Origin: Candidatus Thorarchaeota archaeon
GTDB lineage: Archaea; Asgardarchaeota; Thorarchaeia; Thorarchaeales; Thorarchaeaceae
Reading direction: 5' to 3'
Assembly (NCBI GenBank): GCA_004524445.1
Contig: SDNP01000048.1
Span: forward strand, 1 to 13,792
DNA length: 13,792 bases
Shown one piece after another: positions 16 to 13,623 of this stretch (positions within the stretch are counted from its first letter, which is position 1; each line of letters begins with the position of its first letter). The translations under genes and the position numbers were made by a program. The notes under the pieces were generated by a model. That model had not been told where the DNA came from, did no database searches, and saw nothing but the letters and a program-made list of their open reading frames with translations.

Positions 16-420
16 ATGGACCTTCCCTCATCACTAGAACCCGACAGGATTCAGCCGAGTCAGCTCTATATATCACAGAAGAAACTCGACGCGGTTCTGA
101 GCCTCTTTGATGAGGCTAGAGAGCAAGAATTGGAGCCAATACCAATCAAGAGGTTGGATGATGAACTTGTCTCAACAGACGGCCATACACGGGGGCTTGC
201 GTGGTATCTGAATGGATACGAAAAAGTGCCAGTTGAAGTGGAAGCTATGGAGCTCGAATGGGAAGCATATGGAATCTGTGTTGAGTGGTGCAAATCCGAA
301 GGAATTGGATCAATACCGGATCTTCAAGATAGGGTCGTTGATCACAGGACGTACCAAAAGGTTTGGCTGGACAGATGTAGAATAATGCAGGATGAGCTTG
401 CAGAGAATCGTTCTCTATAG
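16..420 (+). CDS. ParB/sulfiredoxin-fold (ParB N-terminal-like) hypothetical protein
   Basis: 134-aa ORF with IQPSQ near the N-terminus, a 'LEPIPIK' strand and a 'TDGHTR' motif matching the ParB/Srx DGHxR signature. C-terminal CxxWC and RC. GAGG at 5-8 precedes the ATG. The frame is also open from position 1, so a longer N-terminus outside the window cannot be excluded. Confidence 0.65.
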   Translation: MDLPSSLEPDRIQPSQLYISQKKLDAVLSLFDEAREQELEPIPIKRLDDELVSTDGHTRGLAWYLNGYEKVPVEVEAMELEWEAYGICVEWCKSEGIGSIPDLQDRVVDHRTYQKVWLDRCRIMQDELAENRSL

Positions 421-440: not shown

Positions 441-457
441 CGAATAGAATTATAAGT
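441..457 (+). promoter_or_regulatory. Putative archaeal BRE+TATA promoter of the tusA-iscS-iscU operon
   Basis: Purine-rich CGAATAGAA immediately followed by TTATAAG (450-456), about 45 nt upstream of ATG 501. Confidence 0.55.
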
Positions 458-473
458 CAATAATTAACTATTG
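458..473. promoter_or_regulatory. Putative operator (16-bp near-palindrome) directly downstream of the TATA box
   Basis: CAATAaTTAAcTATTG is self-complementary at 14 of 16 positions and lies between the TATA box and the expected TSS. Confidence 0.4.
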
Positions 474-500
474 TGTACTGAGAAAGGTGTATATTTGGAG

Positions 501-746
501 ATGAACTCAGAAGAAGTAGATAGCGAGCTAGATTGTATAGGTCTATACTGTCCACAACCCTTATTTCAAACGCGGAAAGCAATTGATGAGTTGGAACCAG
601 GTCAGGTTCTGCAAGTTCTTTCAGACGACCCCGCAGCAAAATCAGATCTTGAGAGATTCTGCAAGCGGACAGGTCATGAGCTCCTCAGTTATGATAAGCT
701 TGGAGATGGAGTTCAGGTCTTTCTAATAAAGAAGAAGAGCGAATGA
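501..746 (+). CDS. tusA: TusA/SirA-family sulfur carrier protein
   Basis: LDCIGLYCPQP (CPxP persulfide motif), GQVLQVLSDDP and C-terminal VFLIKK; 81 aa, typical size. ATG 501 is preferred over the track's TTG 471 because AGGTG (485-489) and GGAG (497-500) precede it and the family begins here. The stop overlaps the iscS start (ATGA 743-746). Confidence 0.9.
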   Translation: MNSEEVDSELDCIGLYCPQPLFQTRKAIDELEPGQVLQVLSDDPAAKSDLERFCKRTGHELLSYDKLGDGVQVFLIKKKSE

Positions 747-1945
747 GAATGAGTGGCGCATTAGACGAGCAGGTGTATCTGGACTACCAATCAGCCAAAC
801 CTGTGGATAGACGAGTATTAGAGCAGATGACCCCATATTTCTCTGAGAAGTTTGGCAACCCATCTTCTCTGCATCATGTCGGCGATATAGCAACTGAAGC
901 ACTGGAGCAGAGCAGGAAAAAGGTATCCGAGTTCATTGGATCCGACATGGATGAGATAGTCTTCACCTCTGGTGCGACTGAATCTATCAATTTAGGGATT
1001 ATTGGCTTTGCCTTACGAAACAAGAGGAAGGGAAAGCATATTGTCATCTCAGAAGTGGAACACATTTCTATCAGAAACATAGCGAAGTATCTTGAGAAAG
1101 AAGGATTCTTGGTTTCAAGGGTTCCAGTTGACCAATACGGACAGGTAAAACTTGGAAAACTTGAGAGTAGACTCCGTGATGATACAATTCTTGTTTCTAT
1201 ACAATATGCAAACAATGAGATTGGTACTATTCAGAAGATACAAGAAATCGGAGAGATTGTTCACGACCATGGAGCCGCGCTACATACAGACGCAGTTGCA
1301 GCTGAAGGATTAGTACCCATTAATGTTGAGGCAGACAATATTGATTTGATGTCAATGTCGTCTAATGATATCTATGGTCCCAAGGGAGCAGGTTTCTTAT
1401 TCATGAGAAGGGGGTATAGAGTGAATCCACTCATAATAGGTGGAGGCCAAGAGAGGGGACTAAGGTCAGGAAGCGAAGATGTAGCATCCATTGTCGGTAT
1501 GTCCGCAGCAGCCGAGATTATCCAAAAGGAAATGAATGACGAAATAAAGCGGTTCAAGAAATATCGTGACCGAATTATCGATAGCGTCCTAAATGAAGTC
1601 CCTGACAGCTATCTAAATGGGCATCCCGAGGAGCGACTTCCAAACAACGCTCATTTCAGGTTTGACGGGATTGAGGGGGAGTCGATATTGCTTTCATTCA
1701 AAGATTTGGGTATTGCTATCTCCACAGGATCTGCATGCACTTCAAAGACCCTTGAACCCTCGCATTGTCTCATTGCCACAGGGTTACTTCATGAAGAGGC
1801 GCATGGTTCTCTTGAAATTACTGTGGGACGATACAACACAGATAACCACATAGACAAGGTAATAGATGCGGTTCCTAAAGTTGTATCACGACTACGCGAG
1901 CTATCTCCTATTTACACTCCAAAAGAAAAGGTGATGAGTAGATGA
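743..1945 (+). CDS. iscS: IscS/NifS-family cysteine desulfurase homologue, probably catalytically non-canonical (PLP Lys replaced by Asp)
   Basis: YLDY, GNPSSLH, FTSGATES, EH, ANNEIG, HTDA, YGPKG, GGGQERGLRSG and STGSACTS (Cys332) are all recognisable group I desulfurase motifs. The canonical SxHK is SSND (N208/D209). Confidence 0.92.
   Translation: MRMSGALDEQVYLDYQSAKPVDRRVLEQMTPYFSEKFGNPSSLHHVGDIATEALEQSRKKVSEFIGSDMDEIVFTSGATESINLGIIGFALRNKRKGKHIVISEVEHISIRNIAKYLEKEGFLVSRVPVDQYGQVKLGKLESRLRDDTILVSIQYANNEIGTIQKIQEIGEIVHDHGAALHTDAVAAEGLVPINVEADNIDLMSMSSNDIYGPKGAGFLFMRRGYRVNPLIIGGGQERGLRSGSEDVASIVGMSAAAEIIQKEMNDEIKRFKKYRDRIIDSVLNEVPDSYLNGHPEERLPNNAHFRFDGIEGESILLSFKDLGIAISTGSACTSKTLEPSHCLIATGLLHEEAHGSLEITVGRYNTDNHIDKVIDAVPKVVSRLRELSPIYTPKEKVMSR
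1929..1934 (+). promoter_or_regulatory. Shine-Dalgarno site of iscU
   Basis: AGGTGA 7 nt upstream of ATG 1942; ATGA overlap with the iscS stop. Confidence 0.7.
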
Positions 1946-2721
1946 AATCAACAGAATATTCAGAAAAAGTTCTCGACCATTTTAGAAACCCTAGGAACGT
2001 TGGTACACTTGAAGGTGATAATGTTGTACGCGGCAAAGTGGGCAATCCTACGTGTGGGGATATCATGGAGATATTCCTCGAGATTGATGACGATGTCATA
2101 AAGGATGCAAGATTCAGAACATTTGGGTGTGGTTCAGCCATAGCAACCACAAGCATGGCCACGGAGATGGTCAAAGGCATGACCATAGACGAAGCCTTGG
2201 AACTCACTCGCGCCGATGTGGCTGATGAACTAGACGGACTGCCGCCAATCAAGATGCACTGTTCAAATCTGGCGACTGAAGCACTTCACGAGGCCATCAA
2301 GAATTACAAGATGGGCAAAGGCGAAGCAGTCGTAATGGAACAGAAGGAGAAAGAGGAGGAACCCGAATGTGTTGTGGGGAAGGATGAATTCCTGGACAGA
2401 GGCGTCTACCTGTCTTGGATGGATACGAGTCAATTCGAAGACAAGCGAACTCTTGTATTGCACACCGGCGATGAATCCGTTGAAGCTGCACTTGAGCTGA
2501 CTGATGTAACTGACAGAGTAGTTCTATTGACCCCAGAACCAAGAATCGTTACAACCGATGAGTTGAAACAAGAACTTCGCAACTCGCCTGTCAAGGTGCT
2601 TTATGAATCACGACTGCTTGAAATCCGTGGAGAAGAAGAAGTAGAAAAAGCACTAATAGTGAACCTTGACGAAGATGAAGAATATGAACTCTTTGTCGAT
2701 GCCATCCTAATCATCGAATAG
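1942..2721 (+). CDS. iscU: IscU/NifU-N Fe-S scaffold fused to a degenerate thioredoxin-reductase (TrxB) NAD(P)H-domain-like C-terminus
   Basis: Residues 1-125 carry YSEKVLDHFRNPRN, NPTCGD (C38/D40), FGCGSAIA (C63) and LPPIKMHC (H106/C107). Residues ~143-259 follow the TrxB middle-domain pattern (GxxEFxxRGV...K.vlv..Gd.avEaAl.Lt...rV.l...V.vl.es.l.EI.G.eeV...l.n....e.el.VDai.i). Confidence 0.9.
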   Translation: MKSTEYSEKVLDHFRNPRNVGTLEGDNVVRGKVGNPTCGDIMEIFLEIDDDVIKDARFRTFGCGSAIATTSMATEMVKGMTIDEALELTRADVADELDGLPPIKMHCSNLATEALHEAIKNYKMGKGEAVVMEQKEKEEEPECVVGKDEFLDRGVYLSWMDTSQFEDKRTLVLHTGDESVEAALELTDVTDRVVLLTPEPRIVTTDELKQELRNSPVKVLYESRLLEIRGEEEVEKALIVNLDEDEEYELFVDAILIIE

Positions 2722-2852: not shown

Positions 2853-4652
2853 TCAGATATCGTCAACAATATCGGGTACACCAATGTCTTCAATATCCAT
2901 TCCTTGCTTTTGGAGGTGGATGATGGAGAGCTCGTATGCCTTCAGTACATCCGTCTTTGTTAAGAAGCCAATCATTTTGTTGGGATTTTCGGGCGATGTG
3001 ACCACTGCATGTCCTTCATCTTGTTCCATCATAGCACGAAGAGCGCCATCCATTTTGCAGTCAGGCGATAACCGTAGAAATCTTGTGGTCATGATATCTC
3101 GTATTACTATATTTCCATCAGACTGAGTTTCATGAAAGAGGTCTTCTGCAATGATTGTGCCTATGATGCTGCCATCATAACCGATGACGGGGAATTTAGT
3201 GTGATGCGTATTGTCTATGATTTTCAAGACCATCTCAGGTGTCATATTTGGACTAAGAATTGTGGGATCTCTGGTCATTACCTCACCCACTTCGATTGCT
3301 TTCAATGCACCTACATGAACACCCCGCTGTAGGTTTACTCCTCTCCGAGTGAGTTTTATCGTATAAATACTCGAATCATCAATTAGCGATGAAATCAGAT
3401 AGGAAGCTGAAACCGCAGCCATAAGAGGAAGAATCATGATATAGTCGTGCGTCATTTCCATTATTATAACAATAGCCGTCACAGGTGCCTTTGCGCTTCC
3501 AGCCAGCATAGCAGCCATTCCAACCAATGCAAATGCCATTGGTTGTTGAATAATTCCAGGGAAGATAGCTGAAAGACCCAGCCCAAAGACAGCACCGAGA
3601 GCGGAGCCCATGAAGAGGATGGGACCGGAAACACCACCAGAGCCACCTGAACCGAGAGTGATGGATGTTGCAATAGCTTTTAGAATTGCAAACACCAGCA
3701 GAGACATAATACCTACAGTTCCCAGCAGTGTAGCATCAATGAACGGGCCACCCGCGCCCATAATAGCTGGGAAATACGGTTCTTCAGATCCAAAGCTCCC
3801 GTTATAGCCGAATACCTGTTCGAAATGTATTGCCAATATGCCCAATATTCCAACTAGCAGTCCGCCAAGGCCAGGCAAAATATACTTCGATGTTGGTAAG
3901 TGTTCAATACCAGTTTCAAAATGGTAAAATCCTCTGTTCCATACAACGCTTAAGACTCCAAAAGCAAGGCCAAGGAACAGAAAGAAAAGCAATGATATGG
4001 GATGTTGGTATGAAAAGAGGGGGGCCGTGAATGATGGAAACGGGCCTATCATCCAATATGTTATTGCTGTTGCGATTACCGATGAGAGGATGACAGGAAC
4101 AATTGAAAAGCCAACAATACCGCCGGCAATAACCTCAATTCCAAACAAGGTTCCTCCAAGTGGTGCATTAAACGTGGAGGCAATACCCGAAGATAGGCCA
4201 CAAACAAGAAGAGTCTTTCTTTCCTTCTTGTTGAGGTGAAATTGTTTCGCTATGACAGCTCCGATCCCGGCTCCTATTTGAGCAATTGGGCCCTCTTCAC
4301 CACACGAACCACCTGAGGAGATTGTCAATGCAGATGCAATAGTCTTGACAAAAGGAACTCGAGATCGCATCTTCCCGCCTTGAAGAGCATATGATGTCAG
4401 TACTTCAGGCACACCATGTCCCTTTGTTTCAGGTGCCAAGCGCAAGGTAAGAAGAGCCACAGCAAGGCCACCTATTACAGGAGCCACTATCCAGCCGAAT
4501 ACTCCAATGACTTTAGGAATCATAGTGAAGAGGTGACTTGATAATAGAACGAGGTGTCGGAATGCGACAGACATCAGCCCAGCAGCAGTTCCCACGATAG
4601 CCCCTAGAGTATATAGCTCTACACGTTCTTTGAGTATCTTCTTCCTAAGCAC
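2853..4652 (-). CDS. ClC-family chloride channel/transporter with C-terminal tandem CBS domains
   Basis: Filter motifs GHGVPEV, GGSCGEEGPIAQIG, FNAPLGG.LF.IE, GSGGSGGV, GMAA, APVT, EMT.DY and SIYT, then two CBS repeats (VGEVMTRDP..., IRDIMT..., IGFLTKTD). The track starts at 4775. GTG 4652 (GAGG 8 nt upstream) is preferred because the first 41 codons do not resemble ClC and overlap hairpin-rich intergenic DNA. The start is uncertain. Confidence 0.88.
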   Translation of the reverse strand: MLRKKILKERVELYTLGAIVGTAAGLMSVAFRHLVLLSSHLFTMIPKVIGVFGWIVAPVIGGLAVALLTLRLAPETKGHGVPEVLTSYALQGGKMRSRVPFVKTIASALTISSGGSCGEEGPIAQIGAGIGAVIAKQFHLNKKERKTLLVCGLSSGIASTFNAPLGGTLFGIEVIAGGIVGFSIVPVILSSVIATAITYWMIGPFPSFTAPLFSYQHPISLLFFLFLGLAFGVLSVVWNRGFYHFETGIEHLPTSKYILPGLGGLLVGILGILAIHFEQVFGYNGSFGSEEPYFPAIMGAGGPFIDATLLGTVGIMSLLVFAILKAIATSITLGSGGSGGVSGPILFMGSALGAVFGLGLSAIFPGIIQQPMAFALVGMAAMLAGSAKAPVTAIVIIMEMTHDYIMILPLMAAVSASYLISSLIDDSSIYTIKLTRRGVNLQRGVHVGALKAIEVGEVMTRDPTILSPNMTPEMVLKIIDNTHHTKFPVIGYDGSIIGTIIAEDLFHETQSDGNIVIRDIMTTRFLRLSPDCKMDGALRAMMEQDEGHAVVTSPENPNKMIGFLTKTDVLKAYELSIIHLQKQGMDIEDIGVPDIVDDI

Positions 4653-4802
4653 AGGTACAGCCTCATTCAATTCTGCTGTCTTTATGGTAAAATAAACATC
4701 AAATTCGTCCCCGGTCGAGGCAATTAAAAGGTTGTGCTTTAATATGCAATAGCTCAATACGGCGCTAGTAGACATATTAGTGCCGTTTTAGGGTGCAGCC
4801 AC

Positions 4803-4837: not shown

Positions 4838-5947
4838 CTAGTCCCATGGCTTTATTACAGCCTTCACCGACTCTCTCCGTTCCTGAGTTTCTAATGCCTC
4901 TTGAGCCTCATCTAAGCTGAAGGTATGAGTGACCAGTTCTTCAAACGGAAATCGGTCATAGTGGGATGAGAGAACCCGTATTGCTTCATAGAGGTGCTTG
5001 GTTTCGGATCCCCAAACGGTTCTGACATCCAGATGTTTTCTATTCATAAGATGGGGATTAATTTCGACATCCCCGCCATCAGTGTATTGTCCGCAGATAG
5101 AGTATGCCCCGCCTTCTCGGACGAGGAGGATGCCTTCTCGGATTGCCAGTGGATTGCCGGTGGCCTCGTAAACTATGTCAGGACCATGGTCCTGTGTGAC
5201 GTTTCTAGTGAATTGGATTCTCTCTTCCAGAGATGTTGCTGAGAGGTCCAACGTGTGAGTTGCACCAAACTTCTTTGCCAGTTTCAAGCGATTCTCAGCT
5301 TGGTCTATTGAAACAATTGTAGACGCACCGCTAATGCTTGCAAGGATTGTAATCATAAGACCAACTGGGCCTGCACCTTGAACAACCACGTTCTTGCCGA
5401 ATTTCATTGGGCTACGGTTTACTGTATGAACAGCAGTTGGCATAGCACATCCGAGAGCACTCGCACCATCAAAGCTGACATGATTAGGGAGTTTAACAAT
5501 GTGCGTTCCAGGGGTGAGATACACATACTCAGCATAACCGCCAAGAAGATGCGGCCACTTCTCTGGGTTTCGCGTAATACCATAGACTTCTCGATTCGGG
5601 CATTTAGTAGGGTTTTTTGCGATTAAACAATGCCAGCAAGAATAGCACGTTTTTGTGACGTCATGGAAGACGACTCTGTCGCCCTTCTTGATGGTATCGC
5701 CATCGATATTCGTAACCTCAGTGGGGCCAACTTCTGCGATGGTGCCGACAACCTCATGTCCCAGAATCAGCGGATAAGGTACCCCTGACAACTTCCCATG
5801 CCATAGATGCACGTCGGTTCCACATACTCCAACATTAGCAACCTTCAGCAATGCAGAACCAGAAACAAGTTCAGGGATTTCATATTCACGAATCTCTAAA
5901 TCAGCATTAGGCTCAGGAACAACAGCGGCTCTTGCTTTTTTCGGCAT
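4838..5947 (-). CDS. Zinc-binding medium-chain alcohol dehydrogenase (MDR family), probably NAD-dependent
   Basis: VCGTD, LGHE, structural-Zn CxxCxxC...C (TCYSCWHC...KC), GCA third ligand, GAGPVG Rossmann motif followed by acidic 'ID', and C-terminal THTFSL...KAVIKP. SD GGGTGA upstream of the ATG. Confidence 0.92.
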   Translation of the reverse strand: MPKKARAAVVPEPNADLEIREYEIPELVSGSALLKVANVGVCGTDVHLWHGKLSGVPYPLILGHEVVGTIAEVGPTEVTNIDGDTIKKGDRVVFHDVTKTCYSCWHCLIAKNPTKCPNREVYGITRNPEKWPHLLGGYAEYVYLTPGTHIVKLPNHVSFDGASALGCAMPTAVHTVNRSPMKFGKNVVVQGAGPVGLMITILASISGASTIVSIDQAENRLKLAKKFGATHTLDLSATSLEERIQFTRNVTQDHGPDIVYEATGNPLAIREGILLVREGGAYSICGQYTDGGDVEINPHLMNRKHLDVRTVWGSETKHLYEAIRVLSSHYDRFPFEELVTHTFSLDEAQEALETQERRESVKAVIKPWD

Positions 5948-12717: not shown

Positions 12718-13623
12718 CTACTGGTTGTCGATCTCACCCGTATCGAGTATCTTTGGTTCCGAAACCGAGAGTTCTTTGTCCTGAAATCTGCTCAGAAGAA
12801 TAACTCCAATTATTCCGCACACCAGCCCAAGAGCATAGAGTAGAGTATTGTTCAGTGATTGTCCAAATATGTAGAGTCCACCAAATATCACAGCGAACAT
12901 ACTAATGGTTCCAGTGATCGCATTGAAGCGCGCAGCAGGATTTCTTTGCAGTCCAATAGAGATTGTATAGACCCCGGCCGCAAATGTGAAGATGCCCAGC
13001 AAGATGAGAGGAATCAGGGCATTGATGAATCCTTCAATAATGTCGGTTCCTGCGAATAATGAAAGGGTGAACCACTGGGTGTATTGTGATGCCAATGCCT
13101 GCAGGAATGAAGTGATCGGTGCCCAGAGTATAGACAGACGGCGGGTTGCAGGCACCATAGTGCTAACTGCAATTAGCAAAATCACTGTGTAAAATAGAAT
13201 GCCATCATAAGATGCGAACATTATCGGTTCTGTGACTCCTCCAAAAGCAATGAACACGGGCGTCAAAATCAGCATGATAACGCCAATTATTGCCTTAGCG
13301 TCAATCTCCTCATCCAAACGGCGGTGCGAGAGAATGACCAGTGCGATGAGTCCAACGTTCATGAGCGGCTGGACCACAACGATCCCTGCCATTTGAGTGG
13401 CCAGCAGATATGTCAGCCCTCCAAGCAATGAGATTGCAAACCCAGCAAGCCATCTCTTGTTCTTGAATAATGCGCCGGTCTGCTTCAAGGCACCGGAAAC
13501 CTCTATATTCTCCATGGTGGATAGAGCCTCTTTCTGGATGATGGGGGCGATGTTCCACATTAGGGAGGTCATGATAGCCAGAAGAATCCCTAGAAACGCA
13601 CCGGTCATGAGAAGTTGCATCAT
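12718..13623 (-). CDS. DMT/EamA-superfamily membrane transporter (NIPA Mg2+-transporter-like N-terminus)
   Basis: 301 aa with about 9-10 hydrophobic helices. Motifs 'IIQKEAL', 'LFKNKRWLAG', 'VVVQPLMNVGL..L..L...LDE' and terminal 'GLVCGIIGVILLS' are typical of DMT/NIPA-like proteins. Confidence 0.75.
   Translation of the reverse strand: MMQLLMTGAFLGILLAIMTSLMWNIAPIIQKEALSTMENIEVSGALKQTGALFKNKRWLAGFAISLLGGLTYLLATQMAGIVVVQPLMNVGLIALVILSHRRLDEEIDAKAIIGVIMLILTPVFIAFGGVTEPIMFASYDGILFYTVILLIAVSTMVPATRRLSILWAPITSFLQALASQYTQWFTLSLFAGTDIIEGFINALIPLILLGIFTFAAGVYTISIGLQRNPAARFNAITGTISMFAVIFGGLYIFGQSLNNTLLYALGLVCGIIGVILLSRFQDKELSVSEPKILDTGEIDNQ

Follow-up and report, generated by a model that had tools for sequence, protein, structure and literature searches.

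A lysine-less IscS between TusA and a reductase-tailed IscU in a Thorarchaeota-type genome: a possible inward sulfur relay for minimal Fe-S assembly

How does an IscU scaffold obtain its sulfur when the IscS encoded beside it has lost the Schiff-base lysine? This question is raised by a tusA–iscS–iscU operon of a Thorarchaeota-type genome, contained in a window (the whole stretch of DNA analysed here) of 13,792 nucleotides (Table 1). ORF calls placed all three genes on the + strand, and their joining by ATGA overlaps behind a single TATA box, as given in a preliminary description of the locus, is present in the sequence. The window begins at the end of contig C3 and is overlapped by contig C1 over 129 bases. 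Metatranscriptome contigs from four runs of two studies (95–99% alike) include portions of each of the three genes, and one spans the tusA–iscS junction; contigs of this kind cannot show transcription, strand or level. A homologue of the 134-aa gene at the start of the window also precedes tusA in locus L013.

Table 1. Features of the operon and its surroundings (positions refer to the window).
Feature	Position	Strand	Evidence or remark
134-aa gene	16-420	+	no Pfam match; Atlas neighbours ParB N-terminal-like
Archaeal TATA box TTATAAG	450..456	+	function inferred from recurrence
Palindromic operator-like site	464..477	.	consensus TTAAC-N-AT-N-GTTAA; just downstream of TATA box
tusA, sulfur carrier, 81 aa	501..746	+	PF01206 E=6.8e-25
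TusA active Cys17	549-551	+	in CPQP
ATGA overlap tusA/iscS	743-746	+	
iscS/misS, A. fulgidus-type inactive cysteine desulfurase paralogue, 400 aa	743..1945	+	4eb5_A match, residue table, clade
IscS Asp209	1367-1369	+	Schiff-base Lys position; SSND motif
IscS loop Cys332	1736-1738	+	retained
ATGA overlap iscS/iscU	1942-1945	+	
iscU ORF, 259 aa	1942-2721	+	
IscU/MisU scaffold domain, aa 1-128	1942..2325	+	PF01592 E=1.8e-47, TIGR03419 above cut-off
Flexible acidic linker of IscU	2326..2367	+	pLDDT <50 for aa 128-142, mean identity 37%
Isolated NAD(P)H-binding domain of CxxC-less TrxB-fold flavoreductase	2368..2721	+	profile, fold, identity evidence
CLC channel with CBS domains	2853-4775	-	unrelated to operon
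Zinc alcohol dehydrogenase	4838-5947	-	unrelated to operon
Membrane-anchored surface protein, 1831 aa	7084-12579	-	unrelated to operon
EamA-type transporter	12718-13623	-	unrelated to operon

Comparison of the operon IscS with its E. coli counterpart revealed the loss of Lys206, His205, Gln183 and the substrate-binding Arg354 (E. coli numbers), with Asp209, Ala186 and Glu358 at the Lys, Gln and Arg sites, respectively. All three residues required of an active class I cysteine desulfurase (Schiff-base Lys, Gln183, substrate Arg354) are thus missing, and the protein scores below the NifS and IscS equivalog cut-offs. Its best PDB match is A. fulgidus IscS2 (4eb5_A, E=4e-142), which has the same SSND motif. 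Across an alignment of 132 Asp-type IscS sequences the loop Cys (Cys328 in E. coli), His104 and Asp180 stay, the His205 position is mostly Asn, the Gln183 position is Ala in 95%, and the Arg354 position is Leu, Gln or Glu, with Arg not among the common states; 17/17 Lys-type controls keep Gln and Arg. A quick tree with 45 Asp-type rows grouped these proteins, both A. fulgidus copies included, in one clade (SH-aLRT 99). A second loop Cys (C342) was considered as a feature and rejected, being present in only 3/158 sequences.

The preliminary description had portrayed this IscS as lacking the PLP-catalytic residues while keeping its mobile Cys. Cys332 is indeed there, next to iscU, and Lys, His205, Gln and Arg are gone, but His104, Asp180 and Thr76 remain (His107, Asp183 and Thr79 in the operon IscS, kept in at least 99% of the clade), a pattern consistent with PMP binding of the A. 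fulgidus kind. According to two reviews (PMC8918507, PMC7585200), A. fulgidus IscS, with Asp199 at this position, binds PMP, has no desulfurase activity and uses its Cys as a cluster ligand; PMC8918507 adds that a D199K variant still carries PMP (structure 4R5F) and that the reason for PMP binding is not understood. Given the same clade and motif and the further residue losses, the operon IscS is very probably unable to liberate sulfur from cysteine, as had been suggested. It is probably a relay or cluster ligand, a role likewise anticipated, and one that the literature already assigns to A. fulgidus IscS while proposing sulfide as the source. A lysine-less IscS is therefore not new in itself. 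A close homologue was found in 175 of the 301 Asgard genomes searched, and every operon copy fetched carried Asp.

Other Thorarchaeia harbor a second, separate lysine-less IscS clade (L081, L084, L086, L088, L089, L091), in which Lys is replaced by Arg, His, Leu or Val, His104 is mostly lost, and the loop Cys and substrate Arg are kept. Its genes usually adjoin a short iscU, once a thiI-like gene and never tusA; no member was found in the present genome. Still other Thorarchaeia (L082, L083, L087, L092) encode proteins of ~750 aa whose N-terminal half resembles a Lys-type IscS and is followed by a further C-terminal half.

TusA (PF01206, 87 bits) has an intact CPxP Cys, as noted earlier, together with Asp43 and Asp49, the equivalents of both Asp conserved in E. 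coli TusA; 115 operon TusAs show no variation at the Cys, at either Pro or at these two key Asp. Its place beside this type of iscS is an old one. Of 132 distinct Asp-type loci for which the upstream DNA sufficed, found in Asgardarchaeota, two further phyla of archaea and two bacteria, 129 had tusA and/or dsrE directly upstream (≤900 bp): both in 87, tusA only in 37 and dsrE only in 5, leaving 3 with neither. Neither gene was nearby in any of 47 other IscS loci, a control set that is mostly bacterial. As the Asp clade has one origin, 129/132 reflects a single linkage of long standing and should not be read as 129 separate events. The preliminary description had named a non-conserved tusA linkage as a refutation; the linkage is strongly conserved. 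The A. fulgidus genome, whose IscS equals 4eb5_A save for one residue, carries tusA-dsrE-iscS1-iscU1 and dsrE-iscS2-iscU2. The usual unit thus comprises four genes, and the present genome has lost the operon dsrE. The three-part unit described earlier is real, but that account missed the dsrE of the usual operon, which in related operons encodes a protein with a single conserved Cys and stands before iscS-iscU.

Several variations on this gene order were noticed. Three class genomes (L065, L073, L077) have dsrE and the lysine-less iscS, preceded by tusA where that region can be seen, but lack an iscU immediately downstream. Methanoperedens-type loci contain genes for possible electron carriers, namely a rubredoxin between dsrE and iscS (L187:2631-2792; L191:1730-1891) and a flavodoxin after a full IscU-reductase fusion (L186:5592-6023). 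In two Archaeoglobi-type genomes thiI lies directly upstream of tusA-iscS-iscU (L236:4966-6093; L238:5231-6361). Within a few kilobases of the operon a PP-loop gene is found repeatedly (L185:617-1429; L013, L098, L233), and also upstream of the window, on contig C1; its larE-like identity was assigned by eye, Pfam giving only PP-loop families. In one Asgard family (Lokiarchaeia-type) a ~795-aa fusion of flavoprotein reductase, rhodanese, TusA and rhodanese often follows the operon directly (L167:1379-3772, L168, L169, L177, L181, L183), a candidate persulfide reductase.

All five cluster ligands of IscU (C38, D40, C63, H106, C107) are present and invariant in 120 homologues, and the three Cys, Asp and His, the LPPxK motif and a TIGR03419 score above cut-off mark it as IscU/MisU. 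Its tail (aa ~143–259) matches the NAD(P)H domain of TrxB (TIGR01292, E=7.7e-14), with a predicted fold that matches TrxR at an rmsd of 1.2–2.0 Å over ~119 columns, so that the earlier account of an IscU with all ligands plus a degenerate reductase domain stands. Only this middle domain of TrxB is left: the FAD domain and CxxC are absent, and the glycine loop (GxGxxA) and HRR motif have decayed. The tail is acidic (mean charge –11) and conserved, with a mean identity of 67% vs. 79% for the IscU core.

Its origin, missed in the preliminary description, points to a larger enzyme. Full IscU-flavoprotein fusions of 440–450 aa, which retain the FAD motif intact and lack CxxC (116 proteins), occur in Jordarchaeia, Methanoperedens and ANME-type Methanosarcinales; the Methanosarcinales loci checked (4/4) have Asp-type iscS and dsrE upstream. 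Identity of the tail to aa 253–370 of these fusions is 33–39% (up to 77 bits), and to the genome's own TrxB 23% (45 bits). In the IscS tree, the protein encoded next to the Jordarchaeia fusion branches as sister to those of all tail-bearing operons (SH-aLRT 99); a tail-domain tree supports one origin of the tails (100/99) and does not place them inside the full fusions. From the BLAST similarity, the sharp domain boundaries and the IscS phylogeny, we infer that the tail arose from a full IscU-flavoreductase fusion by deletion of both FAD-domain halves. A separate FAD-only partner gene was not evident in the genome. A general role for tail Cys143 was rejected: it is kept in 94% of a mostly-Thorarchaeia alignment and absent in more distant tails. 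Extra basic IscS residues (R126, K139, R143, K320) occur in 96–100% of 26 tail partners vs. 2–15% of 54 short-IscU partners; these residues belong to one lineage, so kinship confounds the comparison, which gives only a hint that the acidic tail may dock on a basic IscS surface.

A search of the openly accessible literature found no description of tusA/dsrE beside a lysine-less iscS, nor of an IscU-reductase fusion. Within that search, the earlier impression that the architecture had not been described holds for the conserved tusA/dsrE context and for the fusion, but not for the inactive IscS. In two further loci an intein with a LAGLIDADG domain interrupts IscU at the first cluster-ligand Cys (L020:4665-6251; L160:3222-4805), and the ~497-aa IscUs in L129, L137 and L144 may be similar intein-bearing forms.

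Upstream of tusA, TTATAAG recurs in 25 of the 28 Thorarchaeia-type loci printed. The palindrome scored at least 10/12 in 32/32 Thorarchaeia-type tusA promoters vs. 1.7% of shuffles, the motif having been defined from the same 32 promoters. Genome-wide, 20 sites reached at least 16 bits, a modest enrichment over permuted motifs (mean 4.8, maximum 16). Strong matches upstream of genes for the FTR1 iron permease, two peroxiredoxin-type proteins, pirin, NikR and a radical SAM protein suggest a candidate site of an iron or redox repressor; none was found at smsCB, sufS or trxB of this genome. The palindrome is absent in most non-Thorarchaeia operons. Archaeoglobi-type operons (L204, L206, L209, L222, L227) have a one-base-shorter palindrome, TTAAC-N3-GTTAA, just upstream of tusA. 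A sigma-70 scan of the promoter gave chance levels, its bacterial consensus being irrelevant to an archaeal host.

Whether the system does without cysteine depends on the rest of the genome, and here the label "cysteine-independent" applied earlier is not borne out: an intact SufS/CsdA-type desulfurase (Lys + Cys) is encoded on contig C30, without IscU/TusA neighbour, alongside an smsCB pair. The genome also encodes another TusA, from a gene close to a dsrE, as well as a dsrEFH-like trio. The survey for Lys-type desulfurase and SmsBC proposed at the outset found SufS-type genes in 83/87 class members (both motifs in 30/30 checked; adjoining tusA or dsrE in 0/30 loci) and SmsB in only 35/87 (15/24 near-complete genomes), so the operon may be the main Fe-S scaffold in many relatives. 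Among four single-contig Archaeoglobi-type genomes, A. fulgidus included, no Lys-type desulfurase was found; they showed only Asp-type IscS, plus SmsB, which makes cysteine independence likely in those genomes. Two further SufS-like proteins of the genome under study (L003:1462-2685, L004:1483-2607), in which a motif search found no PLP-Lys or catalytic-Cys motif, are possible pseudo-enzymes.

An IscS that cannot make persulfide but retains its mobile Cys, in an operon that also encodes a sulfur carrier, is most simply read as part of an inward relay. The operon would form a minimal (MIS-type) Fe-S assembly unit on an A. fulgidus-type inactive IscS. Judging from the structure of the A. fulgidus pair, this IscS would bind IscU, with the mobile Cys332 reaching the IscU site. 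Sulfur would not come from cysteine via IscS (as shown for A. fulgidus and expected here from the same and further losses) and would have to come from outside. Most likely it would arrive as a persulfide on TusA Cys17, with the single-Cys DsrE taking part in most relatives, and pass from Cys17 to Cys332 and on to IscU, Cys332 perhaps serving also as a temporary cluster ligand. Sulfane sulfur needs electrons, so the fused flavoreductase, which could provide them in relatives, fits an inward relay, and full fusions do sit in the same operon type; here, the NAD(P)H domain alone remains and probably serves for docking on IscS. Transfer of sulfur from DsrE to TusA is on record (PMC4175335), and the title of PMC4547094 names ferredoxin, FNR and NADPH as electron suppliers at this step in E. 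coli. That TusA, together with DsrE where present, brings persulfide sulfur to Cys332, for transfer to IscU or for cluster ligation, is our preferred reading, and we hold it to be evenly poised between right and wrong. Against it stand a gene order that gives no direction of transfer, an M. cuprina TusA unreactive with sulfide or polysulfide in vitro (PMC4175335), and thiI directly upstream of tusA in the two Archaeoglobi-type genomes, which suits TusA as an exit carrier.

The multimer prediction suggested earlier was run for TusA:(IscS)2 and weakly supports binding (score 0.37, best control 0.00; contacts agreeing at least 87%, partner pLDDT at least 82); in calibration, passes at or below 0.60 came from 7/80 solved pairs and from both passing mismatches (2/110). 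The score may be explained by likeness to PDB 3LVJ. E. coli TusA Cys19 and IscS Cys328 meet at about 4 Å (PMC2854127). At the E. coli helix-2 site for TusA–IscS binding the residues are only partly kept (W45 lost and E49 variable in the operon IscS, R31 and F58 changed on the TusA side), a point against the relay.

Two published points that weigh against the relay favor direct use of free sulfide: sulfide feeds IscU without IscS in E. coli, rescuing cells that lack iscS (PMC13015791), and it is the source proposed, as a guess, for A. fulgidus (PMC8918507). The operon IscS would then be platform and cluster ligand only, and TusA/DsrE would export or buffer sulfane sulfur, with tRNA thiolation, thiamine, Moco or LarE-type clients. 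The thiI or larE-like genes adjoining several operons and the dsrEFH-like trio agree with such a scheme. It is a strong rival to the relay, though we regard it as rather unlikely: an IscS without desulfurase chemistry has no obvious sulfur to give TusA, and the fused flavoreductase, as sulfide needs no reduction, and the persulfide-reductase-like neighbours would be left unexplained.

The relay from TusA through IscS to IscU could also be fed by cysteine in trans, a separate SufS/CsdA-type desulfurase loading TusA. An intact enzyme of this kind is available on contig C30 and in nearly all relatives, as counted above, but its gene never adjoins tusA or dsrE in the 30 loci, and A. fulgidus and the three other Archaeoglobi-type genomes keep the operon and showed no Lys-type desulfurase, so that feeding of this kind cannot be general; we consider it improbable. 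Far less probable still is that the operon IscS acts, through some unrecognised PMP/PLP chemistry, on a different sulfur compound and, like E. coli IscS, is itself the donor to TusA and IscU. Retention of His107, Asp183 and Thr79 and the puzzling PMP of A. fulgidus IscS would accord with this, but neither Lys, nor Gln, nor the Arg that binds the carboxylate is left, and no activity was found for the A. fulgidus enzyme (PMC8918507).

Among known systems, A. fulgidus IscS2-IscU (4EB5, 4EB7, 4HVK; D199K 4R5F) shares with the operon the SSND motif, loop Cys, substrate-Arg loss, clade, an iscU directly after and tusA/dsrE upstream; in contrast, its IscU is short (about 153 aa) and without reductase tail, its operons keep dsrE, and its genome showed no Lys-type desulfurase, where the present one has one. 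MIS (MisS/MisU; PMC13066941) has the same two-gene core of desulfurase homologue and scaffold without chaperone or carrier genes in the operon, but is defined by an active desulfurase and by nothing beyond these two components. In the present operon MisS is inactive and MisU bears a domain derived from a reductase; the operon would thus work like MIS but departs from its definition, the catalytic residues being gone and tusA (usually also dsrE) lying in the operon. E. coli IscS-TusA and IscS-IscU (3LVJ, 3LVL; PMC2854127) involve the same three families, with the TusA Cys, Asp and Arg27 equivalents kept; in E. coli, the IscS is catalytically active and passes sulfur on to TusA, which is encoded by an unlinked gene; several interface residues differ between the two systems. 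The DsrE/TusA relays of Metallosphaera cuprina (PMC4175335) resemble most relatives of the operon in the adjacency of dsrE and tusA, but serve dissimilatory oxidation beside hdr-like genes, whereas the one-Cys DsrE of these relatives precedes iscS-iscU. With TrxB-fold flavoreductases (TrxR; T. thermophilus TrxR-like 2ZBW) the tail shares the NAD(P)H-domain fold, but it is fused to IscU and has lost the FAD domain, CxxC and intact nucleotide motifs.

Reviews list the sulfur supply of A. fulgidus IscS-IscU without desulfurase activity (PMC8918507) and the electron donors of minimal Fe-S systems (PMC13066941) as open questions, and the conserved neighbours described here name candidates for both. 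More broadly, a widespread archaeal route might run IscS backwards, environmental sulfane sulfur passing from DsrE to TusA, to the Cys of an inactive IscS and to IscU, with an IscU-fused flavoreductase giving electrons in some lineages, and many Asgard archaea might rely mainly on this route for Fe-S assembly; we put this forward tentatively, thinking it possible while leaning against it. If true, it would identify where minimal systems take their sulfur from and one donor of their electrons. The A. fulgidus proteins have already been crystallised, and, with a homologue in more than half of the Asgard genomes searched, any answer matters for how the archaeal relatives of eukaryotes handle sulfur.
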